From the NCBI GenBank assembly GCA_045401115.1, contig CP174359.1, forward strand, positions 652,667 through 716,666: 64,000 bases of DNA, given 5' to 3'. Below, piece by piece: positions 27,366 through 64,000 of this stretch. Below the pieces are notes generated by a model, which worked only from the letters and a program-made list of their open reading frames with translations, did no database searches and was not told the DNA's origin. The position numbers and the translations under genes were made by a program. The DNA comes from Candidatus Phycocordibacter aenigmaticus (GTDB taxonomy: Bacteria > Patescibacteriota > Minisyncoccia > Phycocordibacterales > Phycocordibacteraceae). How positions within the stretch are numbered: position 1 is the stretch's first letter; every line of letters starts with the position of its first letter.

Positions 27366-27603
27366 AATCTGTGTGTCGCTGCTGTCAAATAACTGTCTCT
27401 TATCGGTATTCAGCGACTCCTGGGCCTATTCCAGGTTGGAACCAATTCTATATATGAAAATAGGATTTGTCAAGTCTTTCATTATTCATCCATATACTGC
27501 GCGCTCTTTGGCTAAAGGTCATTTTATGATAGGTAATCATACGTATAGTACGCTGCGAGAAAACTTGACAAAACCTTTTTTATGTTATATATATGCATTA
27601 CAT

Positions 27604-40522: not shown

Positions 40523-42181
40523 CTATTTAAAATCAAGATGAGCAAAGGGTTCATAATCACCCCGAATGACCTTCTTGCCGGGATTAAAAATGTCCTGTGG
40601 GTCAAAAGTTTCCTCGACACGGTTAAAAAGTTCCGTCATGCGTGGACCAAACATACGCTCAACATACGGGGTACGCACGAATCCATCGTTATGTTCACCG
40701 GAAATCGAACCTTTATAAGACAACACCAGTTCATATACTCGGTCAGACAGTTCCGTAATAAGTTTTTTTGCATCAGGTCGATTTGGATCAAGCAGTGGGA
40801 TGATATGAAAATTACCGTCTCCTACGTGTCCAGCAATAGTATAGATAAGATCATATTCTTTCAGAATGGCATTAAGTTTTGGTAAAAATTCAGGTAATGA
40901 TTGCGGTGGCACCACGAAATCATCAATAAACGGTGCAGTGCGTTTATTGCGCACCTTACTACGCAGCAGGTTAAAGCTCTCGCGGCGCACCGTCCAATAT
41001 TTACGCGCCTCTTTTTCATTCTTTGCAAGGAACGTGTCGACAGCGTCCCCATGTTCCATTTTTACTTCAGCAATAAGTGCTTCAGCTTGTTTTAGTGCTT
41101 CAGCTTGCTCTTGTGCACGAAATTCAACAAGCAGCACCAGCTTAGGAACTCCCCCGGTAAGGAGACGCCATATTTCAGGCAAAAACGATATTCCAAGTTG
41201 AAAAATATTTGATTTCATACTCAACGCAAATTCCGGAAAATACCGTACTGCTAGAGAGAATGTGTTATCGTCATACGATTCAAAACTATTCGGCTTATGC
41301 GCAAGCACGGTGGGAACCAGTGTGCCGAGATCATCAATAGAATCCACAAATAGCACCGCCATAGCTGCGTATGGTTTTGGCTCTACCAAACGAAACTTTA
41401 TTTTAGTGATAATACCCATAGTGCCTTGTGAGCCCACCATTAAACGCGCCAAATTTAAACTCGTGATTCCGTCGCCAATATCCCACAATGCATACCCAGA
41501 TGAGTTTTTCTCAACATGTGGTTTTTTCTCTTTTATAATGTCACTGTTTTCTTTTACTAATGAACCGATCCTGCGATACATTTCTCCTTCGAATGAATCT
41601 TCAGACATTTTTTTCATCAGTGCCTCGCCTGAGAGCGCTTTGAGCGTATACACGTTGCCGTCAGCAAGTACCATCTCAAGTTCTTCTACATAGCGCGCAG
41701 TTTTTCCGTATTTTAAATTACGTTCTCCACCAGAGTCGTTCGCTGCCATACCACCGACAGTACACAACTCCCGGGAAGCGGTATAGCTCGGCAAAATAAA
41801 ACCTTTTTCGCGCGTCCGCACATCAAAATCACGATAAAACACCCCTGGTTCAACTACTGCATACCCGCCGTCAGCGTCTTCCCCCACCTCACACACAGTG
41901 TTGAAATGCGGAAGCATGTCAATCACAATTGAGTCACTCAGTGGCCCACCACTCATATCAGTACCGGCAGACCGCGCGGTAATACTTATCTCTTCGCCTG
42001 CGTCTCGTTTAGTATTTACAAAATCCACCAGCGCCTGTACGTCAGCGGTATCTCGCGGTGCCACCACTACCGTCGGTTTGAGTACAAATAGACTTGCGTC
42101 TCGACTAAACTTCTCTCGTGTTTCTGAGGAATCATCAACATCTCCACGAACAACGGTACGTAATTCATCAGCTAAACTCAT
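40523..42181 (-). CDS. FAD-linked oxidase (GlcD/D-lactate dehydrogenase-like, FAD-binding PCMH-type)
   Basis: 552 aa. N-terminal FAD-binding domain (VVVAPRDTADVQALVDF...ARSAGTDMSGGPL) plus an FAD-oxidase C-terminal domain. Confidence 0.7.
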   Translation of the reverse strand: MSLADELRTVVRGDVDDSSETREKFSRDASLFVLKPTVVVAPRDTADVQALVDFVNTKRDAGEEISITARSAGTDMSGGPLSDSIVIDMLPHFNTVCEVGEDADGGYAVVEPGVFYRDFDVRTREKGFILPSYTASRELCTVGGMAANDSGGERNLKYGKTARYVEELEMVLADGNVYTLKALSGEALMKKMSEDSFEGEMYRRIGSLVKENSDIIKEKKPHVEKNSSGYALWDIGDGITSLNLARLMVGSQGTMGIITKIKFRLVEPKPYAAMAVLFVDSIDDLGTLVPTVLAHKPNSFESYDDNTFSLAVRYFPEFALSMKSNIFQLGISFLPEIWRLLTGGVPKLVLLVEFRAQEQAEALKQAEALIAEVKMEHGDAVDTFLAKNEKEARKYWTVRRESFNLLRSKVRNKRTAPFIDDFVVPPQSLPEFLPKLNAILKEYDLIYTIAGHVGDGNFHIIPLLDPNRPDAKKLITELSDRVYELVLSYKGSISGEHNDGFVRTPYVERMFGPRMTELFNRVEETFDPQDIFNPGKKVIRGDYEPFAHLDFK

Positions 42182-42274: not shown

Positions 42275-43000
42275 ATGGCTTTTGTGCACGCAGGAGAAGA
42301 GCACCGTAAACACGAAGATCTCGTAGAAGCTCTCAATGACCCTGAAACATTCAAAAAATACAAAGAATCCTGTGATAATCAGCCGGTTTCTTTTCTCCCT
42401 CATATACTCGGACACTTTCTTATTGCCGCCGGCAACACGCTCTACGGGAAAAAGCCGTCATATCTTAAATTTCGCGCCGTAGAAGTTATTGCGCGCGTAC
42501 CCTACCATTCATGGGTTGCAGTTAGTCACACGTTACTTACTCGATTCTATAAAGATGAGAAACGCGCGTTGGTACTCTGTGCCGATGGAGAATTTGCGCG
42601 CCTCTCCCAAGAGAACGAGACAATGCATGTGGTGGTTATTTCAACACTTACTGAAAATGAAGAGCGTGGCAACGTTATTACTCATACCATTATCCCACTG
42701 ATGTTTGCGCTCTTTTATTACTGGGTCAGTTACCTTATTTATCTCTTTAAACCACGATGGTCACTTGAGTTGAACTACCTTTTTGAGAATCATGCTCTTG
42801 AACAGTATGATGAATTTCTCAAACAAAACGAAGAATCACTCAAGAGTAAACCTATTGAGAGCGAGTTTCTCTCATGGTATGGCCGTGAATTTAGGACGCA
42901 GTACGATTTTTTCCAATCAGTACGTAATGATGAACTCATCCACAGGAACCGTTCAATCCACACCACTTCGTGGCGAGAAAAAACTACATCTCCCCAATAA
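42275..43000 (+). CDS. Alternative oxidase / plastoquinol terminal oxidase (AOX/PTOX)-like di-iron carboxylate protein
   Basis: All four AOX iron-ligand motifs occur in order: AVEVIARVP (LET-like), ENETMH (NERMH), YLFENHALEQYDEFLK (LEEEA..H.Y.EFL) and VRNDELIHRN (RADEAHHR). Size is 241 aa. Confidence 0.72.
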   Translation: MAFVHAGEEHRKHEDLVEALNDPETFKKYKESCDNQPVSFLPHILGHFLIAAGNTLYGKKPSYLKFRAVEVIARVPYHSWVAVSHTLLTRFYKDEKRALVLCADGEFARLSQENETMHVVVISTLTENEERGNVITHTIIPLMFALFYYWVSYLIYLFKPRWSLELNYLFENHALEQYDEFLKQNEESLKSKPIESEFLSWYGREFRTQYDFFQSVRNDELIHRNRSIHTTSWREKTTSPQ

Positions 43001-49931: not shown

Positions 49932-50453
49932 TTAAGATCGCCTTCCGTAGACCAGCGATGTCACGACGAACCCAATAACAAGCCCGACAGCAATACCAAT
50001 AAGGTTTGAAGAGCTGAAGAAACCACCGCCACTGTTCGTATTTGCAACTGCACCACCAACGACAGTGAGTGTGAATTCAGTACTTGCTATTGCTTCATCT
50101 TCATTTTGATAACGGGCACTCACTGTGTATTCTCCAGCATACGGAAACACATAACTCAAACGTGACCCACCGAATTCGGCGTTATGCACACCAGTTGCTA
50201 ATGTCGTGCCGCGTTCTCCTTCAATACGCACCCACACATCGGAAAAATCATGAAAACGTTCTTGATTACGTAAAATCTCAAAATCAAAGATAACTGCTTC
50301 ACCGACCTCCGGTGCCGGAGAACTGTATCCAATATCAAGCGCATATCCATTCACCTCATCTTCGTGGGATGTCCCCCATGAATGAGCACCTACCACACCA
50401 GGAGCGAGTAAAAATAGAAACGTGACGAGGAAAGTAGCTACAAATTTCATCAT
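49932..50453 (-). CDS. Secreted protein with N-terminal His after the predicted signal cleavage site and a C-terminal TM anchor (YcnI/CopC-like architecture; putative metal-binding)
   Basis: Signal peptide MMKFVATFLVTFLFLLAPGVVGA, then mature HSWGTSHEDEV..., a beta-rich middle and a C-terminal TM helix IGIAVGLVIGFVVTSLVY plus RRS. Confidence 0.4.
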   Translation of the reverse strand: MMKFVATFLVTFLFLLAPGVVGAHSWGTSHEDEVNGYALDIGYSSPAPEVGEAVIFDFEILRNQERFHDFSDVWVRIEGERGTTLATGVHNAEFGGSRLSYVFPYAGEYTVSARYQNEDEAIASTEFTLTVVGGAVANTNSGGGFFSSSNLIGIAVGLVIGFVVTSLVYGRRS

Positions 50454-50854
50454 TTAACTATGATAACACCAGTGAAGTATGGCGCAAGGTGATCGTGGAA
50501 ATCCCACTCTCCTGTTTGACCGAATGTGAATTCCCACGTTTCTTCCGCCGATACTGGTCGTTTTGGATCAAACTCAGGATAGTCACGATGTGATGGATGA
50601 AGGTTAGATGCCGGCCAATGTGGTTTTTTAAGTTCCGTATTAAACACCACAGTATCCCCTTCCTCTATCTCGAGTTCTTCTGGGACATATCCGGTTTCAG
50701 TAAGTGTGATGGTGTGAATAACACCAGTGGCGTTAGTAATTGGTTGATTATTTACTTCCTCTTTTGATGAGTTGTTTTGGGAAAAGAAAAACACCGCCCC
50801 TGCAAGTACAGCTAGGAGCACTATAACAACACCGAGTACACGTTTATCACCCAT
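50450..50854 (-). CDS. Membrane-anchored stand-alone cupredoxin-like domain protein (Cys ligand replaced by HDH)
   Basis: 134 aa. N-terminal TM, then ITLTETGYVPEELEIEEGDTVVFNTELKKPHWPASNLHPSH...ETWEFTFGQTGEWDFHDHLAPYFTGVIIVK. This matches the cupredoxin_1-like strand pattern (GDTVxFxN...H...TFxxxGxYxYxCxxHPxMxGxIxV) with C-x-x-H-P-x-M replaced by H-D-H-L-x-P. Confidence 0.6.
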   Translation of the reverse strand: MGDKRVLGVVIVLLAVLAGAVFFFSQNNSSKEEVNNQPITNATGVIHTITLTETGYVPEELEIEEGDTVVFNTELKKPHWPASNLHPSHRDYPEFDPKRPVSAEETWEFTFGQTGEWDFHDHLAPYFTGVIIVK

Positions 50855-50866
50855 AGAATAAAAAAA

Positions 50867-52309
50867 TTATATCACGTCTTGCGGACAGTATGCAGCCAGC
50901 TCAGGAGTAAGCGTGTTGCAGATACGTCTTGTTTTCTCCACGCTATACCATCCATCTAAATCACCAAGAACTTCTGTATAGCAAGCATCCTTATGGGTCA
51001 CTGAAAGGGTCGCATCTGCACAAAAATCAAGCGCGGCTTCATATTCTTTTTCTGGAATTCCATGTTCAAGGAGACCGTGAGCAAAACCAGCGATACACCG
51101 GTTTTGGTGTGTACCAAGTCGACGACATACATCAACAACCTCAGCACTATTGAAAGACGGCAATTCATTGTACGCATACAAACCTGCAAGATATTCAAGG
51201 GCCACATTCAAATGCGGTTCTTTTGTGCCTGAAAGCACTGCTTGAGCTGCAGGGAGGAATTGATTATCGGCCATCCAGAAAATAACCGAGTTCATGTTAC
51301 CGTAGCATGATTCAGCATACTGTCCTTCTTGTGCAGCGCACAGAGTAACCGGGTTTTCTTTTGACACATCCAATCCATACTCATTATTAATATATAAATT
51401 TGCAATGCCGTTAAATAAACCTGACGCACAACGGAATCGTTCTTCCTCCCCCTCTGACGCAACTTCACATTGCGCAAGTGCCGCATCTATTACTGCCGAT
51501 ACGCTGCCAAATTCTCCTGTATTCGCAATAAAAGTTTCCATCACCCCATGGCCAATGCCGTGATAACACTGCAAACGTGCATCGGGCGCATCCCGCCCCA
51601 CTGCTTCGCCAATCGCTTCACACACACCGCCGGCACTCGCAATATCATCGGTGGCACCAAGATATGCTTCCATAAAACCATGATGGAAGCCTGAAGCACA
51701 TGCTGACGCTTTTGGTGTCATGATTGAATTTGAGTCTTTACGATAAAATCCATAACTTGCCAAGCCAATATTATGCGCAATGTAGTGACAAGACTGCGCA
51801 AACTCAGGTTCGCTTTCATAGAGTTCAGCCACTTTGTCATACGCTGCGCCAAGCCCATCTTCAGCAAGTGCAAGAAAAATATCGTCCTGCCAGCACGCAA
51901 GATTACCTCCCCGAGAAATACAACTATCTGTTAATTCACCATCTACACCAGTGACGCGTACGATACCAAAATAAAATGGTGCGAGATGGTCATGATATTT
52001 AAAAAGACCTGATTCCGTGAAGGTAAACTCCCACGTGGCTCCTGGCGGCAGTGCTTGTTGCGTATCAAACTCGGGATATGCTTCGTGTGTTGGATGAAAA
52101 TCAGAAGCCGGCCAAAAATATTTGTTACTTCTATTAACAAATGTCACTGTCTCCCCCACAGCAACCGTAATCTCAGTTGGTGAAAAACCATTTTCAGTGA
52201 GCAGCACAGTACGCGGCGGTGTTACTATCAGATTGATAAGTAACACCAAGCCCGTTATCATTATAACGCTCCCAACTCCAACCAATACTCCTTTTTTATT
52301 TTTATTCAT
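50867..52309 (-). CDS. Paralog family member A1: TM anchor + cupredoxin-like domain + Cys/His-rich helical repeats
   Basis: The cupredoxin-like block (GETVTFVNRSNKYFWPASDFHPTHEAYPEFD...TWEFTFTESGLFKYHDHLAP) is followed by repeats such as SCHYIAHNIGLASYGFY, CASGFHHGFMEAYL and CYHGIGHGVMETF. Start trimmed to Met15. Confidence 0.65.
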   Translation of the reverse strand: MNKNKKGVLVGVGSVIMITGLVLLINLIVTPPRTVLLTENGFSPTEITVAVGETVTFVNRSNKYFWPASDFHPTHEAYPEFDTQQALPPGATWEFTFTESGLFKYHDHLAPFYFGIVRVTGVDGELTDSCISRGGNLACWQDDIFLALAEDGLGAAYDKVAELYESEPEFAQSCHYIAHNIGLASYGFYRKDSNSIMTPKASACASGFHHGFMEAYLGATDDIASAGGVCEAIGEAVGRDAPDARLQCYHGIGHGVMETFIANTGEFGSVSAVIDAALAQCEVASEGEEERFRCASGLFNGIANLYINNEYGLDVSKENPVTLCAAQEGQYAESCYGNMNSVIFWMADNQFLPAAQAVLSGTKEPHLNVALEYLAGLYAYNELPSFNSAEVVDVCRRLGTHQNRCIAGFAHGLLEHGIPEKEYEAALDFCADATLSVTHKDACYTEVLGDLDGWYSVEKTRRICNTLTPELAAYCPQDVI

Positions 52310-53780
52310 AAACAAAATCGTATGAGCAATATTTCTGATACGGTTCCTCAATAGTATTACATATATCCGCTACCTTCTCTTTTGTATAAATCCCCTTAAA
52401 GGTGCGAGTAATATTCCAGTAGCATACGTCCCGTTCATGAGCAGTGAGTATGTCGGTACGACAAAAATCCAAAGCTTTTTCATATTCACGATTTGGCTCG
52501 CCAAAGGCTGCAAATGCACCCGTTAATCCTTTCATACAATCTGTTTGTAAAAACTGCGGTAAGCGCCGGCAGTCATATACTAAATCGGAAAAATCATCTT
52601 CAAGAATACGTGCGCCAAGTGCACCAGCAGCAAATGAATTAATAATCGTACCGGCAATCAAATCGTCAGGAATAGTGGAGATGTGTTTCTCATATATCAT
52701 TCCCATATCAATATTTACCTCAGTATTGAGTTTCATTGCGACTTCGTAGTAGCACGCACGTGCAATTTCATCACTTTCAAATGAAGCGCATAATATAAAC
52801 GGTTTATCATCAGAATAATGTAATCCAAATTGATTGTTCCACATCCAGTCAGCGATGACATTAAAGGCGCCTTGGAGGCATTGTTCACGCAGCGGAGTCT
52901 CTTTAAGTCGATCACACGCGGTGAGGGCGGGAGCAACTAACTTTTCTGTATTTCCCCAATCTTCAATATTAAGGGGTTCAGGGACAAAGCCGTGCCCAAT
53001 GGCGTGATAGCAGTTTAATTGTATCCATGGCAATTCATCTTCACGTCCGGTAAGGTTCTCACAAATTTCAAGTGCGAGATCGTAGTCCGGTTCATCGCGC
53101 AGGAAATGCTCAAGGAATCCATGGTAGTAACCGTAGCCACAGTACGAAGTTTCCGGCGGGAACTCCAATTTACTCATGTCTTTGTGACCAAGATACAAAC
53201 CATACTCAACTTCACCGAGTTTGTGTGCCATCCAGTGACATCCGATAGAACTAAATTCGGGTTCGTTTTCATACAGCTCTTCGAAGAGTGCGAACGACTC
53301 TTTTACTCCCTCAGTTTCTAACGTATTGGCAAGTTCCCGTTCCCAACATGCCTGTTTTTCTGACGCGCTTAATTCATCAGAACGTTCAATACAACTCACC
53401 ACTTCAGTGACATCACCTACAAGAATCTGGCCTCGAAAGTAGGGACGGAGATGGTCGTGGTACCACCACACACCATCTTTTTTAAACGTAAACTCCCAAC
53501 GCTCACCCGGTTTTATCGGCCTACCCACATCAAACTCGCTGTATATTTCATGTAGTGGATGGTTGTCGGATGCGACCCACAACGAATGACTACTCTTGTT
53601 TAAAAAAGTAACTGTGTCCCCTGAATCAATCACGAGTTTCTTTGGCGAGAAGCCACTGTCTTTTAGAACGACTGTGTTTGGCGTTAACGGCTGATACTGA
53701 GACAATGCCAATCCTCCCACAAGAAACGTGAGTGCGAGAATGCTAATAATGATGAGAGCGGGTCGTAAAAAAATATTCAT
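52302..53780 (-). CDS. Paralog family member A2 (cupredoxin-like + Cys/His-rich repeats)
   Basis: 492 aa. GCHWMAHKLGEVEY, YCGYGYYHGFLEHFL and NCYHAIGHGFVPEP. Near-identical to A3 over long stretches at the nucleotide level. Confidence 0.65.
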   Translation of the reverse strand: MNIFLRPALIIISILALTFLVGGLALSQYQPLTPNTVVLKDSGFSPKKLVIDSGDTVTFLNKSSHSLWVASDNHPLHEIYSEFDVGRPIKPGERWEFTFKKDGVWWYHDHLRPYFRGQILVGDVTEVVSCIERSDELSASEKQACWERELANTLETEGVKESFALFEELYENEPEFSSIGCHWMAHKLGEVEYGLYLGHKDMSKLEFPPETSYCGYGYYHGFLEHFLRDEPDYDLALEICENLTGREDELPWIQLNCYHAIGHGFVPEPLNIEDWGNTEKLVAPALTACDRLKETPLREQCLQGAFNVIADWMWNNQFGLHYSDDKPFILCASFESDEIARACYYEVAMKLNTEVNIDMGMIYEKHISTIPDDLIAGTIINSFAAGALGARILEDDFSDLVYDCRRLPQFLQTDCMKGLTGAFAAFGEPNREYEKALDFCRTDILTAHERDVCYWNITRTFKGIYTKEKVADICNTIEEPYQKYCSYDFVYE

Positions 53781-53814
53781 AGCGTACTCTTACATGCTCG
53801 ATATATGTACTGCG

Positions 53815-55290
53815 CTATTCATATGAGTATTCATAAGAGCAGTATTCTTTATATGGCTCTGCAATATTGGTACATACCTCTGCCATTTTCTCTTTTGTAT
53901 AAACCCCTTTAAAGGTGCGGGTAATATTCCAGTAACATGTGTCTCTTTCTTTCTCTGTAAGTATATTCATACTGCAAAAATCTATTGCCTTTTCATATTC
54001 ACGATTTGGCTCGCCGTATGCCACAAATGCACCCGTTAATCCTTTCATACAATCTGTTTGTAAAAACTGCGGTAAGCGCCGGCAGTCATATACTAAATCG
54101 GAAAAATCATCTTCAAGAATACGTGCGCCAAGTGTAGTTGCCATAAATGAATTAATGACCATACCTGCGATTCTTTCGTTTGGTATATCAGAAACATATT
54201 TCTCATGCGCCAATATGACATCGTTATCAACCTTTGGATTTAACTTCATTGCCACTTCGTAGTAACACGCTTCTGATGTATACGTATCTTCAAAAAGAGC
54301 ACATATTTCAAGTGGTGTGTCGTCTGGGAAATACAAACCAAATTGGTTATTCCACATCCAGTCAGCGATGACATTGAAGGCACCTTGGAGACATTCAACA
54401 CGAAGTGCCTGCTCGTCAAGCCGATTACACGCATTCAGTGCAGGTGCTACCAGCTCTTTTGGCTTCCCCCACTCTTCAATATCGAGTGGTTCGGGAACAA
54501 AGCCGTGTCCTATGGCGTGGTAGCAATTCAACCGTATGCGTGGCAATTCATCTTCACGGCCGGTAAGATTCTCACAAATTTCAAGTGCGAGATCGTAGTC
54601 CGGTTCATCGCGCAGGAAATGCTCAAGGAATCCATGGTAGTAGCCGTAACCACAGTACGAAGTTTCCGGCGGGAACTCCAATTTACTCATGTCTTTGTGG
54701 CCAAGGTAAACGCCATACTCAACTTCACCGAGTTTGTGTGCCATCCAGTGACATCCAATTTGACTAAACTCAGGCTCACTCTCGTATAATTTTTTAAAGA
54801 GTACAAATGATTCCTTCACCCCTTCAATTTCCAGGGTATTGGCAAGTTCCCGCTCCCAACATGCTTGCTTCTGTGATGTATTCAACTCGTCGGAGCGTTC
54901 AATACAACTCACCACTTCAGTGACATCACCTACAAGAACCTGGCCGCGAAAGTAGGGACGGAGATGGTCGTGGTACCACCACACACCGTCGTTCTCGAAT
55001 GTGAACTCCCAACTCTCGCCGGGCTGTATGGGCCTGCCTATATCAAATTCAGTATAGATGTCATGTTGTGGATGGTTGTCGGATGCAACCCATAACGAAT
55101 GACTGCTCTTGTTTAAAAAAGTCACTGTACCCCCTGAGTCAACCACGAGTTTCTTTGGTGAAAAACCACCATCTTTCAGTACGACTGTGTTTGGTGCTAA
55201 GGATTCATAATTGGAGACCACGATTCCGGCCGCGAAAAATGCGAAAGCAAGAATACTGATGATAATACTGGGTCGTAAAAAAATATTCAT
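53815..55290 (-). CDS. Paralog family member A3 (cupredoxin-like + Cys/His-rich repeats)
   Basis: 491 aa. About 85% identical to A2 (same motifs). For example nt 54040..54130 equals 52530..52620. Confidence 0.65.
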   Translation of the reverse strand: MNIFLRPSIIISILAFAFFAAGIVVSNYESLAPNTVVLKDGGFSPKKLVVDSGGTVTFLNKSSHSLWVASDNHPQHDIYTEFDIGRPIQPGESWEFTFENDGVWWYHDHLRPYFRGQVLVGDVTEVVSCIERSDELNTSQKQACWERELANTLEIEGVKESFVLFKKLYESEPEFSQIGCHWMAHKLGEVEYGVYLGHKDMSKLEFPPETSYCGYGYYHGFLEHFLRDEPDYDLALEICENLTGREDELPRIRLNCYHAIGHGFVPEPLDIEEWGKPKELVAPALNACNRLDEQALRVECLQGAFNVIADWMWNNQFGLYFPDDTPLEICALFEDTYTSEACYYEVAMKLNPKVDNDVILAHEKYVSDIPNERIAGMVINSFMATTLGARILEDDFSDLVYDCRRLPQFLQTDCMKGLTGAFVAYGEPNREYEKAIDFCSMNILTEKERDTCYWNITRTFKGVYTKEKMAEVCTNIAEPYKEYCSYEYSYE

Positions 55291-55323
55291 AGTGATGTTA
55301 TTCTCCTCACTGTATATACTGCG

Positions 55324-56796
55324 TTATTCATACGTACAATATTTTTGATACGGTGCCGCAATCAGTGCGCACACTTTTTCCATTTTATCTTTTAGATACA
55401 CTGCTTCAAATGTACGGACAATATTCCAGTAACAAATATCTCTCTCTTCTTCAGATAGTATATCCAAATTACAAAAATCAATTGCTTTTTTGTATTCGTT
55501 CTCTGGTTCACCAGCAGCCATAAATGCTGCAGATAATCCTTTCATGCAGTCTGTCTGTAAGAATTCTGGTATCTGCCTGCACTCATACACAAAACGGGAA
55601 AAGTCGTTGTTGAGAATGTCTTGACCAAGAGCGCTCGCTGCAACAGAACTCAGCACCATACCTGCAATAGCTTCATCGGGTATATGAGATATGTATTTAT
55701 TATATGCACGCACAATATTATTATCAACACTCGGGTTCAGTCGCATTGACACCTCGTAATAACACGCAGACTTCTTTTCATGATCATCAAAAGATGCGCA
55801 GAGAGCAAGAGGTTTATCTTCTGGGTAGTACAAACCAAATTGGTTATTCCACATCCAATCACCAATTACATTAAACGTCCCTTGATAACATTCGTGACGC
55901 TCGTCGTCACGGCTCATTCTCTCACATGCGTCTAACGCCGGAGCAACCATTTTCCGTGGGTCTCCCCACACTTCAACATCATCCGGCTCAGGAACAAATC
56001 CGTGACCGACCGCATGATAGCAGTTCAAGCGAATTCGTGGGATTCTATCTTCAAGTCTGGTAATGAGTGTTTGACAGAACTGGTTGGCGGCATCGTAATC
56101 AGGGTCGTCACGTAGGTAATGCTCCAGAAATCCATGATAGTAGCCGTATCCACAATACGATGTCTCCGGAGGAAATTCTAAACGAGAAAGATCTTTATGG
56201 GTTAGGAATTCGCTATACTCAACCTCACCAATTTTATGCGCCATCCAGTGACATCCAATAGTAGTAAAATCTTTATCTGTATTATACAGTTCAGTAAATA
56301 ATTCGAACGAAGCTGTGGTTCCATGTTCCTTAAGTTCGTTTGCAAGCTCTCGCTCCCAGCACGACTGTTTATCCTCAATTGACGCTCCTTCGAGTTCATC
56401 GAGACAACTCTTTGATTCGTCGGCATTACCCACCACCACTTTTCCGTTGTAGTAAGGGCGCAGATGGTCGTGATACCACCAGACTCCCTCTTTTTCAAAA
56501 GTAAACGTCCACGATTCATTTTTCTCAAGTGGATGTCCTGCATCAAACTCCGTATATAAAGTATGCTGAGGATGATTATCAGAAGCAGGCCAAAATGAAA
56601 ATGAGCCTTTATTTATAAATGTTACCGTCTCCCCCACTTGAATTGCTATTCGCGAGGGATGAAAACCACCATCTTTAAAAACAACTGTGTTTGGTCCCAC
56701 AGGTGTATAGTTAGACACCACGATTCCGCCTACGAGAAACGCGAGTGCGAGAATGCTAATGATAATAAAAGCGGAAAGAGGTGCTGAAATTTTCAT
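55324..56796 (-). CDS. Paralog family member A4 (cupredoxin-like + Cys/His-rich repeats)
   Basis: 490 aa. GETVTFINKGSFSFWPASDNHPQH...WWYHDHLRPYY, GCHWMAHKIGEVEY and NCYHAVGHGFVPEP. Confidence 0.65.
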   Translation of the reverse strand: MKISAPLSAFIIISILALAFLVGGIVVSNYTPVGPNTVVFKDGGFHPSRIAIQVGETVTFINKGSFSFWPASDNHPQHTLYTEFDAGHPLEKNESWTFTFEKEGVWWYHDHLRPYYNGKVVVGNADESKSCLDELEGASIEDKQSCWERELANELKEHGTTASFELFTELYNTDKDFTTIGCHWMAHKIGEVEYSEFLTHKDLSRLEFPPETSYCGYGYYHGFLEHYLRDDPDYDAANQFCQTLITRLEDRIPRIRLNCYHAVGHGFVPEPDDVEVWGDPRKMVAPALDACERMSRDDERHECYQGTFNVIGDWMWNNQFGLYYPEDKPLALCASFDDHEKKSACYYEVSMRLNPSVDNNIVRAYNKYISHIPDEAIAGMVLSSVAASALGQDILNNDFSRFVYECRQIPEFLQTDCMKGLSAAFMAAGEPENEYKKAIDFCNLDILSEEERDICYWNIVRTFEAVYLKDKMEKVCALIAAPYQKYCTYE

Positions 56797-56805
56797 GGAG
56801 TCTTT

Positions 56806-58050
56806 TTATTGTATATCATTAGCGTTTGGTTGAATATTATATCCTTCTTTGTTTAAACACTGCGTACTCCATGGTTCAGGTAGTGTTCGGCAAAACGTTT
56901 TAAATGGCTCTGAATCCGGTATAAAGTTAAACGTTGAATAGAATAACAGTTCATCGTAGCACCGCTGACCAACACCATGCTCTTCAGCTATTTCACACAA
57001 ATCAACCGCGCGCGAGGCAAGGCGATAATCGGTTTCAATAAACCGCGATGCTGAATTTGCAAAACACTGCCCTTGTCGCTCTTGCGGCAATCCTTCACAA
57101 ATCGGAACAATCCGGCTCGCATCAAAATTAAATTGAGCTGTTAACACATAGAACATCGCATTGTAACAACGATGCATTGACTGCCCATCAGGTACAAGAT
57201 TACAAAATCGCTGGAGTAAGTTCGGGTCACTAAGCTCCTCGCGATAGAGCGGCCAACTTTCTCGATGACATGCCGCACGACGCTCGCCAGAAAATGTTCT
57301 GCAAAACGCTTCGGCTTCTGCTTGGGTTTCCGGCTCTATATCCTCAACGAGGGCGAAATCCTCAGGCTCAAGCGGTTGAAAAATCTGCATGTAGGCGCCC
57401 TCATAACATGTTTGTGTATAATCGCGCTCGCCTTTTTTTGCCACTTGATCACATACTCCGGTTGCCTCACTGATATGAGCATCAGTAATATACATAGAAA
57501 GATGTCCTAGAGCGTGGTAACAACTTGCCTGTTCAAGACCAGTAAACGTTTTTGCTTCACTATTTTCACAGATAGTATCAAGTTGAGGAATGAGTTCTTG
57601 AAGTTCTTCACCTACAAAAACCTTATCGCGGAAACGCTCTTGAAATGCACCGTGAATAGCACCGTTTGAACAAACACCGGTCGGTGCACGCGCAATAACT
57701 TCAGTCCATTTAGAAAGGTCCTTAGCTGCTTCTTTAGCAGATAAGTTATGACCAAGTACATGGCAATAAAAATAACTAGGGTCACGTTCCTGTACTTTAA
57801 CTGTTACTTGAAACGCTTCCTCCATAGTAAGTCCTTTATCCATAAGACGCGGTATCTCGGTATCGTAACAATGAGGCGCATTATTTTCTTCCGCACACGC
57901 TTCCATCACCTCGTCAGCGAGCTCTGCAAAGGTTTTACCAGACGTACCGACAGTATCTACAAACAAGCCCTGCAGCTGCCCTGCAGCTGCATAGCCTATA
58001 ACAATAAGAACTAAAATACTGATTATAAAAATATTTTTCTTTTTTTGCAT
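56806..58050 (-). CDS. Paralog family member B1 (signal anchor + Cys/His-rich repeats, no cupredoxin domain)
   Basis: 414 aa. YCHVLGHNLSAKEAAKDL, CSNGAIHGAFQERF and CYHALGHLSMYI. Paralogous to 61354..62610. Confidence 0.6.
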   Translation of the reverse strand: MQKKKNIFIISILVLIVIGYAAAGQLQGLFVDTVGTSGKTFAELADEVMEACAEENNAPHCYDTEIPRLMDKGLTMEEAFQVTVKVQERDPSYFYCHVLGHNLSAKEAAKDLSKWTEVIARAPTGVCSNGAIHGAFQERFRDKVFVGEELQELIPQLDTICENSEAKTFTGLEQASCYHALGHLSMYITDAHISEATGVCDQVAKKGERDYTQTCYEGAYMQIFQPLEPEDFALVEDIEPETQAEAEAFCRTFSGERRAACHRESWPLYREELSDPNLLQRFCNLVPDGQSMHRCYNAMFYVLTAQFNFDASRIVPICEGLPQERQGQCFANSASRFIETDYRLASRAVDLCEIAEEHGVGQRCYDELLFYSTFNFIPDSEPFKTFCRTLPEPWSTQCLNKEGYNIQPNANDIQ

Positions 58051-58055
58051 ACAAT

Positions 58056-59057
58056 TTATGGACGATCTTCAATGCCTTCGGTTAAATCAGCTAATCTCAG
58101 ACATCGATCTCTCTCCTGTGGAGATACTAACACGCAAAATTGTTCTGGTTCATCGCGAAGCTCATCTAAAGCATAGAAACTCCATGACGCTCCCGCTAGA
58201 CACGCCACCTCCCCAAGGGAACCAAACGCAGCGCAATGTTCACGTACACGCGGCGCGTTGTATTCAGTACTCGGTGCTAAATTAGATCCAATACCCATAA
58301 AACATCGCTCACGATAGATAGACGACGCAATATCACCACATACAGCTTTTTGTTGCTGAATGTTGTTATTCAACATCCGCAAAAACCACTGACCAAGTTC
58401 AAAATAGCAAGACTCTCGAAAAACCTCATCGACTTCAGTGCAGGGAGTATATGGGTCATTTTTATTAAACTCCCGGGGTTTCGGTATTTCTCCATCAGGA
58501 CCAACAACAAGTGGAGTGTTGTACTCCATAAACACTCCTGAAGTACAGCCTAAAAGTTGGGTGACTTGAGTAGTTTTTGCACATAACTCAAGTGCTTTAG
58601 AGACACTCTCATATCCGACATATTCCATAATACCGTGACCGATACCATGTTGGCACCCGGTACCTAAGACTGAGTACGCATTAACACATTGTGTATCAAG
58701 CTCACTGATTACAGAAACACCTTCTTCACTAATTGCTCGCCCAAAAAACCCATGGAAACAACCGAAACTAAAACTTGCATCACAGTAACGGATACCCGCA
58801 ACACCTTCATGTTCATAAAAAAGCTCTCCGATAATATGTGTTGAAAGATGTCGCCTCTCAAAGGGTGCGACTTGATTCTTCTTTTTAAATTCAGAAAATG
58901 CATCCTGCGCACCTACTTTATTAATGCGTGTATCCCAATACGCACGATTATAGGACTCACTCTCTATTGAATAGATTGGATGTGAGTCAGCGGTTAAAAA
59001 TGTGCCGATAAACATACCGACAATGATAAGTACTCCAAATATTGCAAAACGTCTCAT
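58056..59057 (-). CDS. Paralog family member C1 (signal anchor + Cys/His-rich repeats)
   Basis: 333 aa. FSFGCFHGFF, CQHGIGHGIMEY and GCTSGVFMEYNTPL. Paralogous to 59060..60091. Confidence 0.6.
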   Translation of the reverse strand: MRRFAIFGVLIIVGMFIGTFLTADSHPIYSIESESYNRAYWDTRINKVGAQDAFSEFKKKNQVAPFERRHLSTHIIGELFYEHEGVAGIRYCDASFSFGCFHGFFGRAISEEGVSVISELDTQCVNAYSVLGTGCQHGIGHGIMEYVGYESVSKALELCAKTTQVTQLLGCTSGVFMEYNTPLVVGPDGEIPKPREFNKNDPYTPCTEVDEVFRESCYFELGQWFLRMLNNNIQQQKAVCGDIASSIYRERCFMGIGSNLAPSTEYNAPRVREHCAAFGSLGEVACLAGASWSFYALDELRDEPEQFCVLVSPQERDRCLRLADLTEGIEDRP

Positions 59058-59059
59058 AG

Positions 59060-60091
59060 TTACATAATATCAGCATCTTCAGTTGGACAGGGAGAATAGT
59101 ATTCAGAAATACTCTCACTACATACTAATGCAGCATCTTCATATCCAGCACCATCAAACATAACGCTCCACGCGGCTGACGCGCGACATAAATATCTACC
59201 TTTTTCTGTAGGCATGAGCCCACACCCTTCATTTACTTTATACGGATCAAAATTAACACTTGGAGCCACAACACCACCTAATCCATGGTAACAATTTCGT
59301 ACATAGCTTTCTAAAGGAGACCCGGCACAAAGCGCGCCAATCTTTTCAAAATCATAGTTATATACCTGCCCCCACCACTGTGGTAATTCGTGATAACACG
59401 AATCCCTAAATTCCACCGCAACAGTGTCACATGGCGCATAGGGGTTCTCTGGATTAAGAGGCCGAGGTTCAGTAAAGAAGACTCCTTCGTCAGAATAGCG
59501 TAGCGGTGTGTTGTATTCCATAAACACACCGCCGGTACAACCAGCTATCGGGTTCGGTTGGGTTGTTTTTTTACATAACTCAAGCGCTTTTGCTAATTGT
59601 CCACCACCAAAATATTCCACCAATCCGTGACCAATGCCATGCCGACATGCAGATGGGTCACCATATGTTACTGCGCTACACGCCTCATCTAATTTTGTAA
59701 TACTACTAATTCCTTCAAAAGAAACTGCGTTGGTAAAAAAACCATGATAACAACCAAACGCAAACTGTGGGTCACAATATCGCACTCCTTCTATTCCCTC
59801 CGAAACAAGTAACTCTTCCCCAAAAATATGCGCAGCATTATGTTGTGTTCCAAAATCAGCATGTTGATAATCAGTAACAAAACGAGCATATGCCTTCTGA
59901 GGACCCTGAGTCGAAAGAAGATCTGTTATGCGCGTCCGCACCTGTGCCGGATCTACTCCATATCCTCCTCTATCGGCAACTAATGTGTCTTCTGTATTTG
60001 GTATAGATGGCTTAATAAAGGAATGTATAAAAAACCATAAAAAAATTCCTGCCAGAATCACCACAAATAGAAACAAGGCATTCTTTTTCAT
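59060..60091 (-). CDS. Paralog family member C2 (signal anchor + Cys/His-rich repeats)
   Basis: 343 aa. FAFGCYHGFF, CRHGIGHGLVEY and GCTGGVFMEYNTPL. Confidence 0.6.
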   Translation of the reverse strand: MKKNALFLFVVILAGIFLWFFIHSFIKPSIPNTEDTLVADRGGYGVDPAQVRTRITDLLSTQGPQKAYARFVTDYQHADFGTQHNAAHIFGEELLVSEGIEGVRYCDPQFAFGCYHGFFTNAVSFEGISSITKLDEACSAVTYGDPSACRHGIGHGLVEYFGGGQLAKALELCKKTTQPNPIAGCTGGVFMEYNTPLRYSDEGVFFTEPRPLNPENPYAPCDTVAVEFRDSCYHELPQWWGQVYNYDFEKIGALCAGSPLESYVRNCYHGLGGVVAPSVNFDPYKVNEGCGLMPTEKGRYLCRASAAWSVMFDGAGYEDAALVCSESISEYYSPCPTEDADIM

Positions 60092-60095
60092 ACCT

Positions 60096-61313
60096 TTATG
60101 TATTATTTAAACAGAAATTACGGTGCGGACCTTCCGGAAGGCGGTTACACAAAGGCGCTGCTGATTTAGTGTTGCGCATGAAATAAACAATTGTCTCTGA
60201 AAGGTGTCGGTAGCAGGCATTCCGTTCTCGTTCATCTTCGGCAATAGCGCAAAAAGTAAAAGAGGCATCAGGGTTATTTTCACCTCCCCAAAACAACGAT
60301 CCTAAGGCACTTGCATTACACGCCATTCTACCCGCCTCATTATCGGTAAGCGCACACCACTCCCGTATCCGTTGCAATGACTCTTTCGGAGCAGACCCGA
60401 TGTCGCGTATATCCCTGTCCTGCGCAAGCACGAGAAATTCCTTACCGAACCCTCCGTAACACGCCTCCCATTCAGCTCTGTTCTTTTTTGGTATTTCATC
60501 ACAGTAGGTAAACGCTTTCTCATAGTCTTCAGGTTGCGGGCGGGCGAGATCGGCACCGGCGCTGACAAAAAGGTGTGGAGTAAGATAGGTGTAACAAATC
60601 GGGCGTACAAGTTCAGGCATAAACGATGCGTTGCATGGCGCAAGTGGATCATCCTCTTTAAAATAATTATCTTTCTCTAACTCCCATGCGTTTCGATCAT
60701 GGACACCAGCAAACATTTCCATTGTTGCCCCGCCGACACATTCAACATACTCACGATTTTGGCGCGCTTCACTACCGGTTTGCGCACACATCTCAATTGC
60801 CTGTTCAAAATTATAATTTGCATACGCGAGTATGCCATGTCCAAGTCCGTGAAAACACATTGTATAGGCACCCGAGCCGCCTGGCGCATTACTGCATGCC
60901 TCAGCTATTTCATTGAGCGCCCCCTTCCCTTCTTCAGAAAAAAGTCCGACCACTATTGAGTGTGAACAGGCATTACGAAAATCGGGAGTACAATCATAAA
61001 TACCGTCTATCCCTTTTTGTTTATATAATATGTCACCCACCACATGACCTAACAGGTGAAGATCCGTTCCTGGTGCAATGTCCGCCTGGAGCAGCGCTTG
61101 AAACGCATACGCCCCTCCTTTTTCCTCAGCAAGATTCTCAAAAAAATCAGCGTACTCGTCAAAAGAAAGTGGGTTTCCTTTCAAATCAGCAACTTCACGA
61201 TGCGGCTGTGCGAATGAATCAGTGACTATATAGCCCACACCAACCAACACCATGATGCCCACTACAAATAAAACGGATTTTATTTTCTTCATATGTGTCA
61301 CAATATCAGACAT
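60096..61313 (-). CDS. Paralog family member D (signal anchor + Cys/His-rich repeats)
   Basis: 405 aa. HLLGHVVGDILY, MCFHGLGHGILAY and VECVGGATMEMF. Confidence 0.6.
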   Translation of the reverse strand: MSDIVTHMKKIKSVLFVVGIMVLVGVGYIVTDSFAQPHREVADLKGNPLSFDEYADFFENLAEEKGGAYAFQALLQADIAPGTDLHLLGHVVGDILYKQKGIDGIYDCTPDFRNACSHSIVVGLFSEEGKGALNEIAEACSNAPGGSGAYTMCFHGLGHGILAYANYNFEQAIEMCAQTGSEARQNREYVECVGGATMEMFAGVHDRNAWELEKDNYFKEDDPLAPCNASFMPELVRPICYTYLTPHLFVSAGADLARPQPEDYEKAFTYCDEIPKKNRAEWEACYGGFGKEFLVLAQDRDIRDIGSAPKESLQRIREWCALTDNEAGRMACNASALGSLFWGGENNPDASFTFCAIAEDERERNACYRHLSETIVYFMRNTKSAAPLCNRLPEGPHRNFCLNNT

Positions 61314-61353
61314 AAAACGTACTTAGTATATCAGAATCCTCACCAATACATTC

Positions 61354-62610
61354 TTACAGATCAAAAATAGAGAGGTTAGATCCTTCACCTGCCTGGCAGC
61401 GTTCTTTATATGAGTGCGGCAAGAGTCCACAAAAATGTTCAAAGCGTTCAGTGCCCGGAACCGTACTAAACGATGAATAAAATAACAATTCATCCCAACA
61501 TCGCTTCCCCACACCTGTTTTTTCTGCCCGCTCACAAAATTCAATTGATTGTTCAAGAAAATCATCATCAATCTCTAAAAAACGAGAACTAATATTTGCA
61601 TAACATTGAGCCATACGTTCATCAGAAAGACCTAAACAAATCGCCTCTAGCCTGTCTTGGTTAAATTCAAAATGTGCCGTGAGTACATAAAAGATAGTAT
61701 TATAACAACCTTGAATCCCACGTTCTGTAGTGTATACACCACAGAACCGATCCATTCCTTTTATGGTTTTTATATCTTCCAAAAAAAGTGGCCAGGATTC
61801 ACTATTACATGATTCTCTTGGAATACGATCAAATTGTGCACAAAAATCACGCGCTTCCGTTTGTGTTCGCGGTGCTCGATCAGCAATAAGCGCGATGTCT
61901 TCAGGTTCAAGTGGTTGGAAAATTTGCATAAAAACCCCATCGTAACAATTACGCACAAACTCATATGGTTCACTCCGTGTGACCACCGAGTCACATAAAT
62001 TTACTGAAGCTTTAGCGTCTGCATCGTGAATATACATCGTAAGATGTCCAATCGCATGGTAACAACTGGTTCGCTCAAGCTCAGTAAATGTTCGAGTTGC
62101 AGTATCTTCACAAATAGTTTTTAATTTTGGTTTTAACACACCTAACTCTTCTGAAGAAACATTTTCATCTCGAAACCTTTCCTGAAATGCACCGTGTAAG
62201 CAGCCATTTGAACATTGGCCGACCGGGCATCGTGCTACCACATCAGTCCATTGCGAAAGGTCTTTTGCAGCTTCTTTAGCGGAAAGATTGTGTCCTAACA
62301 CGTGACAATAGTAATAACGTGGATCCTCTTTTTGTATAAGCGCAGTTACCTCAAACGCCTCTTCCATTGAAATGCCTCGTTGTAATAATTTTGGCACTTC
62401 TTCATCATAACAAGTCGGGGCGTAGTTACTTTCGGCACACACTTTTAGAATTTCTTTAGCATATCCCTCAACCCCACCACTTCCGTCACTTTGTATAATA
62501 GAAGCGACCAAAGTGACCGCACTGTAGCTCAGAAAAAATACTAAGAATAGAAAAGCACCAAGTACAAATCTTTTTCTAATATCAGACTGATTATTGTTCT
62601 TTTGCATCAT
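61354..62610 (-). CDS. Paralog family member B2 (signal anchor + Cys/His-rich repeats)
   Basis: 418 aa. YCHVLGHNLSAKEAAKDL, CSNGCLHGAFQERF and CYHAIGHLTMYI. Clear paralog of B1. Confidence 0.6.
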   Translation of the reverse strand: MMQKNNNQSDIRKRFVLGAFLFLVFFLSYSAVTLVASIIQSDGSGGVEGYAKEILKVCAESNYAPTCYDEEVPKLLQRGISMEEAFEVTALIQKEDPRYYYCHVLGHNLSAKEAAKDLSQWTDVVARCPVGQCSNGCLHGAFQERFRDENVSSEELGVLKPKLKTICEDTATRTFTELERTSCYHAIGHLTMYIHDADAKASVNLCDSVVTRSEPYEFVRNCYDGVFMQIFQPLEPEDIALIADRAPRTQTEARDFCAQFDRIPRESCNSESWPLFLEDIKTIKGMDRFCGVYTTERGIQGCYNTIFYVLTAHFEFNQDRLEAICLGLSDERMAQCYANISSRFLEIDDDFLEQSIEFCERAEKTGVGKRCWDELLFYSSFSTVPGTERFEHFCGLLPHSYKERCQAGEGSNLSIFDL

Positions 62611-64000
62611 TCAAACATTCTTCTTTATACTTATCAGGCATGGTAGCGCATAATGCTGTTTGTGTCTTTTCAGTCGAATAAAGTTCGGCAATACGATTAA
62701 TATATCTCTCAAAACATATTGCGGACGATTCCTCTGTACCTAAATCTACACAAAAACTACTTACTTTAATAGATGGCTCAACACCCCAATAATCAAACGC
62801 TGCATCAAAAGCACCTATAATACATGATTTGTAATACGCACGAGGCATGAGCGAACAGGTGCGTTCTACTTCTTGAGCATTACGTAACGTATTACTACTG
62901 GTATCACGACCTATGCTGTTAAAACACGCATCAACAAAACCTTCTTCCGCTCCCAGACATACATCAATTACTTCCTGGTAATCACGGGTAACTACCGCAA
63001 ACATCCAAGAAGTCTGCATTTGATAACACTTCCGTTTAGCAGTATGATCCTCAACCGTGTCACAAGGATAATAAAGATTATCAGTACTAACCCAATTCGT
63101 ATAATGCCCATTAATGCCGGCGGAAAAACCTAATGCTGTGGTTACATTTTCCATAAATACCCCACCATAACAAAAATCTGTTTTTTCTTTTTCAGAAAAC
63201 GAACGGCACGCTGAAAGAGCTTTTGGTAAATCATAATCAAGAAATGCCATAAGTCCGTGTCCCGCGCCATGGAAACACTGATTACGTTCAAATGGAACTT
63301 TAAGAGAAGTACATAAAGCATTGAGTTCTTCTTTAAAACTTCCGGAACCCACTTCCCAAAAAAACGCTTCAATGAAGCCGTGGTAAAAACCGGAATGACA
63401 CGCTGAACTGCCATCTTTAAGAATTTCCTTTCCGAATACATCATATGCTGCTCGCCCAACATAGTGAGCCGCACTATGGCAACTAAAATTTGAACCTTCT
63501 CCACTTTCTTCTGAAATTTTTTCTATCGTACGACGTGGACCAATCTGAAACACTACACGACGGATCTCAATATCATCGGGTGCATAATGGTATACCCTTT
63601 CTGCTTCATAATTTTTATCTGAAAAAAGATCTTCTTTGTCTAAGACAGTACCAAGCAACAACCCCTCGGAACCGCTTCTAATAGATGCGAGGCCTGGGAT
63701 GGTATTTGATTCTGTACGTATGATAGCGTGTAAAAAATATCGTACTGCTTTCGTTATATGATATATCACCGAACCAACATACTCACTATTGGGGTTCACT
63801 ACTACAGTGCCTGAAGATTGTAACGAGAGATGATCATGAAAATTCCAAAAGCCGGGTTCTCGGAACGTAAACGTATATTTACCGTTGGGAGGTATCGGTT
63901 CGCACGCGTCAAATACGTATTCTTCAATAAGAGAGCCGCAACGACGTATATCTGAACCAGGATATGCAGCGTGTGTGGGGTGGAAATTTGAAGCAGGCCA
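62591..64000 (-). CDS. Paralog family member A5 (partial; the N-terminal cupredoxin-like domain continues past the window end)
   Basis: The frame continues upstream of the listed GTG start. Translation of 63800..64000 gives WPASNFHPTHAAYPGSD...KYTFTFREPGFWNFHDHLS, followed by CHSAAHYVGRAAY, CHSGFYHGFIEAFF and CFHGAGHGLMAF. Confidence 0.6.
   Translation of the reverse strand, partial: WPASNFHPTHAAYPGSDIRRCGSLIEEYVFDACEPIPPNGKYTFTFREPGFWNFHDHLSLQSSGTVVVNPNSEYVGSVIYHITKAVRYFLHAIIRTESNTIPGLASIRSGSEGLLLGTVLDKEDLFSDKNYEAERVYHYAPDDIEIRRVVFQIGPRRTIEKISEESGEGSNFSCHSAAHYVGRAAYDVFGKEILKDGSSACHSGFYHGFIEAFFWEVGSGSFKEELNALCTSLKVPFERNQCFHGAGHGLMAFLDYDLPKALSACRSFSEKEKTDFCYGGVFMENVTTALGFSAGINGHYTNWVSTDNLYYPCDTVEDHTAKRKCYQMQTSWMFAVVTRDYQEVIDVCLGAEEGFVDACFNSIGRDTSSNTLRNAQEVERTCSLMPRAYYKSCIIGAFDAAFDYWGVEPSIKVSSFCVDLGTEESSAICFERYINRIAELYSTEKTQTALCATMPDKYKEECLNDAKEQ

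Follow-up and report, generated by a model that had tools for sequence, protein, structure and literature searches.

The closest known systems to the protein domain described here are the classical Cup-III cupredoxins, namely the "purple cupredoxin" Nmar_1307 (5fc9), amicyanin, and plastocyanin. The domain is encoded in a gene array on a 64,000-nucleotide stretch of DNA from Candidatus Phycocordibacter aenigmaticus (contig CP174359.1, positions 652,667 to 716,666), and this whole stretch is called the window below. In contrast to the classical Cup-III proteins, the domain lacks the Cys, C-terminal His, and Met ligands of the type-1 (T1) copper site, and most likely the N-terminal His ligand as well, whereas four other His are invariant, two of them in an H-D-H motif. 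Moreover, the members of this HDH family are membrane-anchored and are often fused to a helical domain of 370 amino acids (aa). The HDH cupredoxins form a large, previously undescribed family and are part of a three-module surface system specific to the Candidate Phyla Radiation (CPR).

Like the HDH family, FtrB (Cup-II, 8VUK) and the N-terminal Cup domain of EfeO (Cup-I) are cupredoxin folds without the T1 set of His/His/Cys, and both are still proposed to bind Cu(II) via Asp and His. FtrB pairs with the periplasmic FtrA of the P19 family, an immunoglobulin (Ig)-like, Cu-binding protein, and this pairing is reminiscent of the partner protein S173 that accompanies the HDH domain. In FtrB, which has no T1 set of His/His/Cys, Cu(II) is bound through Asp118 and His121 (PMC11966278). 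This FtrB-type D-x-x-H is absent in the HDH family, where D121 is present but the +3 position is Ala, Arg, or Ser (residue numbers of the domain follow the 134-aa stand-alone protein of the array). FtrB is the nearest functional precedent; it differs in its ligands, structure class, and gene context.

In cupredoxins, the residue preceding the Cys ligand points away from the T1 copper toward an adjacent "remote" face; plastocyanin has Tyr83 at this place, nitrite reductase has His135, and multicopper oxidases have the first His of their H-C-H motif. Residues a few positions past the T1 His line the same face, namely the acidic patch 42-45 of plastocyanin, His100 of nitrite reductase, and the H-P-x-H-x-H motif of multicopper oxidases. 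In nitrite reductase and the multicopper oxidases, this face bears the type-2/type-3 copper ligands. Similar to the HDH family, these enzymes (H-C-H, H-S-H, HPxHxH) have His immediately next to the Cys position and two more His past the T1 His, and in them those residues face the neighbouring side and bind non-blue copper. H120-D121-H122, with the Asp on the Cys column, matches their H-C-H/H-S-H/H-C flanking pattern at the motif level only. In contrast to these enzymes, the HDH family has a single cupredoxin domain, and its His spacing is +7/+10 instead of +3/+5.

The domain comprises ~90 residues and is common to the 134-aa protein and the N-termini of four ~490-aa proteins, where it lies behind a transmembrane (TM) helix. 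It is a Greek-key beta-sandwich of 7-8 strands, and its fold is that of the cupredoxins. Compared with the PDB, a 65-sequence family profile matched amicyanin (E 7e-9) and, in an archaeal NirK-type protein (9cck), the cupredoxin domain at the C-terminus (E 4e-7). When aligned with hhalign to the canonical T1 repeats of P0150, the family reached a probability of 97% and an E-value of 2e-10. P0150, a protein of 1154 aa retrieved by the exhaustive search, consists of about nine tandem cupredoxin repeats, most with an F-x-C-x-x-H-P-x-M type-1 site and two Cys-less; this mixture of canonical and Cys-less repeats shows that the HDH family adjoins true blue-copper domains in sequence space. The AlphaFold2 model has a predicted local distance difference test score (pLDDT) >90 over most of the domain, and a Foldseek search with it gave a target-normalised TM-score of 0.80 to plastocyanin 1bxu and to 5fc9. 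The five complete window copies score 17.4-26.4 bits with the Pfam family Cupredoxin_1 (PF13473) against a gathering cut-off of 27, and many close homologues pass this cut-off, for example P0097 at 67.5 bits. The domain is nearest to the classical single-domain cupredoxins and not to the Cup domains of EfeO or FtrB.

In the alignment of the five complete copies, W80, A82, S83, H86, P87, H89, Y92, E94, F95, D96, W107, F109, T110, F111, G115, H120, D121, H122, L123, and P125 are invariant, and the same residues are invariant among 65 close homologues. Cys is absent from all five complete domains, and the first Cys of the fusion proteins lies past the domain, at residue 129-144. A larger set of 257 homologous domains was pooled from two homologue searches and the exhaustive search of public data. 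H86 is retained in 253 of these 257, H89 in 246, H120 in 249, and H122 in 247, while position 121 is occupied by Asp in 243, Asn in 7, and Cys in 7. All four His occur together with D/N121 in 246 domains. The seven Cys all belong to the canonical T1 repeats of P0150 and none to an HDH-family domain; the seven sequences with Asn in place of D121 are otherwise intact. The conservation of the motif residues is far beyond chance. The preliminary description of this DNA had claimed a strictly conserved HDH motif and a W-P-A-S-x-x-H-P-x-H motif in all copies, the lack of any Cys in the domain, and five to six paralogues. The five-copy alignment and the 257-domain counts agree with the two motifs and with the strictness of HDH, the lack of Cys is true of the five complete copies, and a sixth copy was found in the open reading frame (ORF) at 62594-64000, outside the region that the description covered.

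The T1 copper site is lost. D121 aligns to the Cys ligand in every alignment, both with amicyanin and in the profile-profile comparison with the P0150 repeats. Position 124, the column of the C-terminal His ligand, holds Ala, Arg, Ser, or Asn, with His in only 13 of the 257 domains; position 127, the column of the axial Met, holds Phe or Tyr, with Met in only nine. In the model, the ligand loop is collapsed to a tight two-residue hairpin. The claim that Asp occupies the Cys ligand position therefore holds, as does the cupredoxin-like beta-sandwich, which is borne out by the amicyanin match, the AlphaFold2 model, and the Foldseek result. The preliminary description had also named EfeO Cup domains as a parallel; the closest relatives are the classical single-domain cupredoxins. 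Its interpretation is supported in part, and the nature and place of the site are revised in the proposal below.

The position of the former N-terminal His ligand is less uniform, and the loop that contains it is 7 residues longer in the family than in the P0150 repeats. The ligand falls on column 79 in the amicyanin profile alignment and also in the near-gapless alignment to 5fc9, where "VPHN" lies on positions 78-80. It falls on A82 by pairwise phmmer and on H86 by hhalign, and a query with the first-His loop alone gave no match. Column 79 is Phe in 176 of the 257 domains and His in 27, the His cases including the stand-alone window protein. Column 79, mostly Phe and not conserved, is most likely the equivalent of the N-terminal His ligand. 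It is favoured because the alignment to the closest structure, 5fc9, is near-gapless, and because the short strand 81-83 of the model sits where strand 4 should begin. With this placement, each of the four T1 ligands has been replaced, and H86 and H89 follow the former His at +7 and +10. D96 was considered as a metal ligand and rejected: the F-D pair also occurs in the canonical T1 repeats of P0150, and D96 is thus probably structural.

The partner protein S173 is encoded directly after the stand-alone cupredoxin, its start codon overlapping the stop codon of that gene (ATGA). The gene pair is kept in related genomes; of 75 loci, 37 have an S173 homologue no more than 6 kb away. Natural fusions of S173 with the cupredoxin domain were found in 11 of the 150 best representative proteins and at two loci. 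They consist of signal peptide, S173 domain, TM helix, basic linker, TM helix, and cupredoxin domain, a topology that puts both domains outside the cell. H24 of S173, directly after the predicted signal-peptidase site, is present in 119 of 119 homologues, each of which has A, G, or S before it; D40 and W74 are likewise invariant, E31 is conserved in 89%, and a C-terminal hydrophobic segment is found at 145-170. None of 120 S173 homologues carries a Pfam domain, and the comparison of S173 with Pfam, NCBIfam, and PDB profiles yielded nothing beyond weak Filamin/PKD hints.

A His that follows a signal peptide generally marks a metal-binding protein, and several newly described families of this kind bind Ni or other metals (PMC12537917). 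In YcnI of Bacillus subtilis, a signal peptide precedes the N-terminal His27, whose amine and imidazole bind Cu(II); the protein further has Glu50 and a conserved Trp137, and it consists of a beta-sandwich with a C-terminal TM helix (PMC8424229). S173 resembles it in the signal peptide, the mature N-terminal His, the carboxylate and Trp, the small beta-sandwich, the C-terminal TM anchor, and the extracytoplasmic location. From YcnI (DUF1775), Cu(II) goes on to the CopC domain of YcnJ, another beta-sandwich domain that binds copper. In contrast, S173 neither matches the hidden Markov model (HMM) of DUF1775 nor has a CopC/CopD neighbour, and its partner is a cupredoxin-like domain. We propose that the invariant mature N-terminal His, carboxylate, and Trp of S173 may mimic the monohistidine-brace Cu(II) site of YcnI and that S173 may work like YcnI; membership of the YcnI family is not claimed.

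The third module is the helical domain of the fusion proteins, an alpha-solenoid with the motifs C-H-x3-H, C-x2-G-x2-H-G-x2-E, and C-x-H-x2-G-H-G. H183, H187, H221, E225, H261, and H265 (numbered in the 490-aa fusion, which also has 16 Cys in this domain) are invariant in a 33-sequence alignment, and the same motifs, judged by eye, are present in the solenoid-only paralogues. The solenoid is predicted to be disulfide-stapled. No relative of the domain was found in Pfam, NCBIfam, or the PDB. In the model of the 490-aa fusion, which has a predicted template-modelling score (pTM) of 0.84, a short linker joins the cupredoxin domain (H75, H78, H109, D110, and H111 in this protein) to the solenoid. 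Ten tandem membrane-anchored alpha-solenoid paralogues with the invariant His cluster occupy 50867-64000 of the window on the minus strand, or ~13 kb of a ~721-kb contig. Solenoid paralogues also lie within 6 kb in 66 of the 75 related loci. In these neighbourhoods, 370 of 753 ORFs belong to one homology cluster that covers all three modules, linked via the fusion proteins; any other family recurs in 11 of the 75 loci at most.

The family is large. A profile search of 1.84 billion representatives returned 10,734 matches at E<=1e-3, 4,735 at <=1e-10, and 520 at <=1e-30, and 169 loci were confirmed in a scan of species-representative genomes. Nearly all loci belong to Patescibacteria/CPR, including Paceibacterota, Kaiser-, Nomura-, Doudna-, Gottesman-, and Sungiibacteria, and Microgenomates. 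A few metagenome-assembled genomes with other taxon labels carry the same gene clusters. Among them, the loci labelled Acidimicrobiales (L053) and Verrucomicrobiia (L055) and several "uncultured Gammaproteobacteria" loci have the CPR-type cluster of solenoid paralogues, cupredoxin, and S173; these labels are probably wrong or the contigs mis-binned. The domain occurs in stand-alone proteins of ~130 aa, in ~490-aa fusions to the helical domain, in proteins of 310-380 aa with the cupredoxin domain at the C-terminus, and in a few large proteins alongside fn3, peptidoglycan (PG)-binding, or canonical cupredoxin repeats. The literature search found no description of a Cys-less or three-His single-domain cupredoxin, nor of this CPR family.

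We tentatively favour the explanation that the domain carries a type-2-like, non-blue metal site, probably one for Cu(II), which serves extracellular capture and hand-over together with S173, with the solenoids as probable partners or recipients. In place of its lost electron-transfer (T1) copper site, the cupredoxin would have acquired another site made up of histidines only. H120 and H122 probably flank the old Cys position and H86 and H89 probably lie in the loop after strand 4, so that by analogy all four would map to the "remote" face. Three or four of these His would form one solvent-exposed, mononuclear type-2-like site, most probably for Cu(II). D121, which is Asn in a few members, would be second-shell or structural and would fill the vacated T1 pocket together with W80; the seven intact sequences with Asn at this position fit a hydrogen-bonding or second-shell role better than that of an obligatory ligand. 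The domain is held outside the cell by its TM anchor. As a metal-handling module paired with the co-translated and sometimes fused S173, it may capture the metal at the cell surface and hand it on, the probable recipient or partner being the His-cluster alpha-solenoid, which is present either in cis as a fusion or as the product of a neighbouring gene.

Several points weigh against this explanation. We infer the convergence of the four His on one site from homology only, and the three aligners differ in the placement of the first-His loop (column 79, 82, or 86). If H86 were the equivalent of the T1 His, the site could be a remodelled T1 pocket instead. The family HMM has no significant match to Escherichia coli CueO, with a best domain score of -3.0 bits and the fragment "lHPsH" on L442-H-P-F-H446 as the sole alignment. 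S173 has no DUF1775, CopC, PCuAC, or P19 match among Pfam, NCBIfam, and PDB profiles. Moreover, all-His sites also bind Zn, Ni, and Fe, and the context does not fix the metal: the window contains no copper enzyme, transporter (CopA/CopD/FTR1), or chaperone, and none recurs among the 75 neighbourhoods.

It is unlikely that the domain is a non-metal module in which the His, Asp, and Trp make up a network of hydrogen bonds or a surface on which the alpha-solenoid, S173, or a host-cell molecule docks. Metal-free cupredoxin folds such as the ephrins and some Cup domains are known, the context lacks copper-related genes, D121 tolerates Asn, the high pTM suggests that the interface to the helical domain is fixed, and the partners fused in other proteins are of adhesion type (fn3, PG-binding). 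However, four invariant His in a ~90-residue extracytoplasmic domain, as seen in 246 of 257, are a typical metal-site signature, a strand H-x-H with an H-x-x-H in the neighbouring loop is a classic chelating arrangement, and the partner S173 has its own invariant mature N-terminal His. Binding of another metal is about equally improbable. In that case, Zn, Ni, Fe, or Mn would be scavenged from the environment or host by a genome-reduced episymbiont, with "anglerase"-type capture proteins as a parallel. All-His sites are not copper-specific, proteins with a signal peptide and His1 bind Ni or other metals (PMC12537917), the related Cupredoxin_1 protein of Bacillus anthracis (PF13473; 4hcf/4hcg/4hci) has been deposited with Cu and with Zn (4hcf, 4hcg), and no cuproenzyme client is seen in the window or the neighbourhoods. 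On the other hand, the fold lineage and closest relatives are all copper proteins, the YcnI-like N-terminal His/carboxylate/Trp sites are Cu(II) sites, and no permease is linked to the cluster, FTR1/EfeU-type permease Pfam families being absent from the listed neighbours of the family loci. The Irving-Williams series, in which Cu(II) is favoured at exposed N-donor sites, also speaks for copper.

A more ambitious and less probable alternative is an inter-domain catalytic centre, in which the cupredoxin His and the solenoid H183, H187, H221, H261, H265, and E225 would together bind at least one copper in an extracellular oxidase or oxygenase that works on the principle of the multicopper oxidases. 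The H-x-H and post-T1 His of multicopper oxidases and nitrite reductase are textbook suppliers of inter-domain type-2/type-3 ligands, LHPxH matches CueO 442-446 at the motif level, and Pfam Cu-oxidase_3 gives weak matches on WWYHDH (E 0.02-0.1). The two domains are fused in cis over a short linker in a model with pTM 0.84, and the invariant His cluster of the solenoid occurs in every paralogue. However, there is no significant sequence similarity to multicopper oxidases (PDB laccases match the family profile at E 0.45-2 only), the His spacing past the T1-His column is +7/+10 and not +3/+5, and, as its stand-alone form and its fusions with S173 show, the domain also functions with no solenoid covalently attached. 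It is similarly a long shot that a free-standing type-2-like copper site, of the kind that nitrite reductases and multicopper oxidases have at the side of a cupredoxin domain but with the blue site deleted, is docked on the solenoid His cluster and loaded by a YcnI-like chaperone as a new CPR-specific class of extracellular oxidase or oxygenase. Least probable by far is a plastocyanin- or amicyanin-type electron carrier, for example a donor to NirK. Two CPR studies give single-domain cupredoxins or "plastocyanin" this role (PMC5581439, PMC12931201), eight homologues are named "plastocyanin" by the Joint Genome Institute (JGI), and the relation to amicyanin in fold and sequence is real. Against this, all copies and 243-250 of the 257 homologues have Asp in place of Cys and lack the C-terminal His and the Met, and the eight "plastocyanin"-labelled sequences have neither Cys nor Met in the site. 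The NCBIfam plastocyanin and amicyanin models reach 13-23 bits against cut-offs of 88-110 (best scores for TIGR02656 and TIGR02657 of 21.2 and 23.0 bits, with cut-offs of 87.85 and 110.2). With the Cys, C-terminal His, and Met ligand positions all substituted, the sequence effectively refutes the electron carrier.

These results bear on metabolic models of the CPR. Members of the family are labelled "plastocyanin" or "cupredoxin", yet a NirK-donor role is chemically untenable for the HDH family. The PMC5581439 and PMC12931201 proteins may or may not belong to the family, but the JGI labels on eight members make the risk of a misassigned electron carrier real, and CPR metabolic models should check which cupredoxin they rest on. 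If true, the favoured metal site would be a natural re-use of the cupredoxin scaffold, without its T1 site, for a non-blue four-His site, which bears on the origin of the multicopper oxidases. The three-module system of His-cluster cupredoxin, N-terminal-His protein, and His-cluster alpha-solenoid makes up about half of the genes in its neighbourhoods and likely represents a major cell-surface function of CPR episymbionts. It has no name and no literature, and two of its three modules have no Pfam family.

In the window, the system forms a single gene array, all on the minus strand, that spans 49932-64000 (Table 1) and corresponds by exact sequence matches to the locus tags ACJKTH_03815 to ACJKTH_03840; the stand-alone protein is 100% identical to P0035 (ACJKTH_03820). 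Each cupredoxin-bearing protein of the window has one such domain. Every array protein with a complete N-terminus has an N-terminal hydrophobic anchor helix except S173, which has a signal peptide and a C-terminal anchor instead. The N-terminus of the sixth fusion falls outside the window. This ORF, listed as 402 aa, is a further fusion protein; the part of its cupredoxin-like domain that the family HMM recovers is the C-terminal half (WPASNFHPTH...FHDHL), which contains a 2-Cys insertion. As annotated with a TTG start, the 494-aa ORF shares its first 50 nt (52302-52351) with the end of the 492-aa ORF upstream of it; an internal Met just ahead of the TM helix (MNKNKKG, residue 15) is a more plausible start.

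Table 1. Proteins of the array, with positions in the window
Feature	Position	Strand	Composition
Partner protein S173, 173 aa	49932..50453	-	Signal peptide (..VGA/H24); small Ig-like beta domain; C-terminal TM anchor
Stand-alone cupredoxin protein, 134 aa	50450..50854	-	TM anchor residues ~6-24; Cys-less cupredoxin domain ~46-134; motifs W80-P-A-S-N-L-H86-P-S-H89 and F-H120-D121-H122-L
Fusion protein, 494 aa	50867..52351	-	TM; cupredoxin-like domain ~48-133; then 16-Cys/His-cluster all-alpha domain
Fusion protein, 492 aa	52302..53780	-	Architecture as 494-aa fusion; cupredoxin domain ~34-121
Fusion protein, 491 aa	53815..55290	-	Architecture as 494-aa fusion; cupredoxin domain ~33-120
Fusion protein, 490 aa (the one modelled)	55324..56796	-	TM 7-28; cupredoxin 37-122; alpha-solenoid 131-487
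Five tandem solenoid-only paralogues, 414/333/343/405/418 aa	56806..62610	-	TM anchor and Cys/His-rich alpha-solenoid only
Sixth fusion protein, 5' part beyond window end	62594..64000	-	Partial cupredoxin-like domain at 63692-64000, then alpha-solenoid

Elsewhere in the window, a 241-aa ORF at 42275-43000 on the plus strand matches the Pfam family AOX (alternative oxidase, a di-iron quinol oxidase) with E 4e-11. It adjoins an FAD-linked oxidase (40523-42181) and a PfkB kinase. The match is unexpected, as a Patescibacteria genome should lack a respiratory chain. Two large surface proteins are also predicted, one of 1137 aa with a SpaA-like prealbumin-fold domain at 23329-26742 on the minus strand, and one of 453 aa with a CARDB domain at 27289-28650 on the plus strand.

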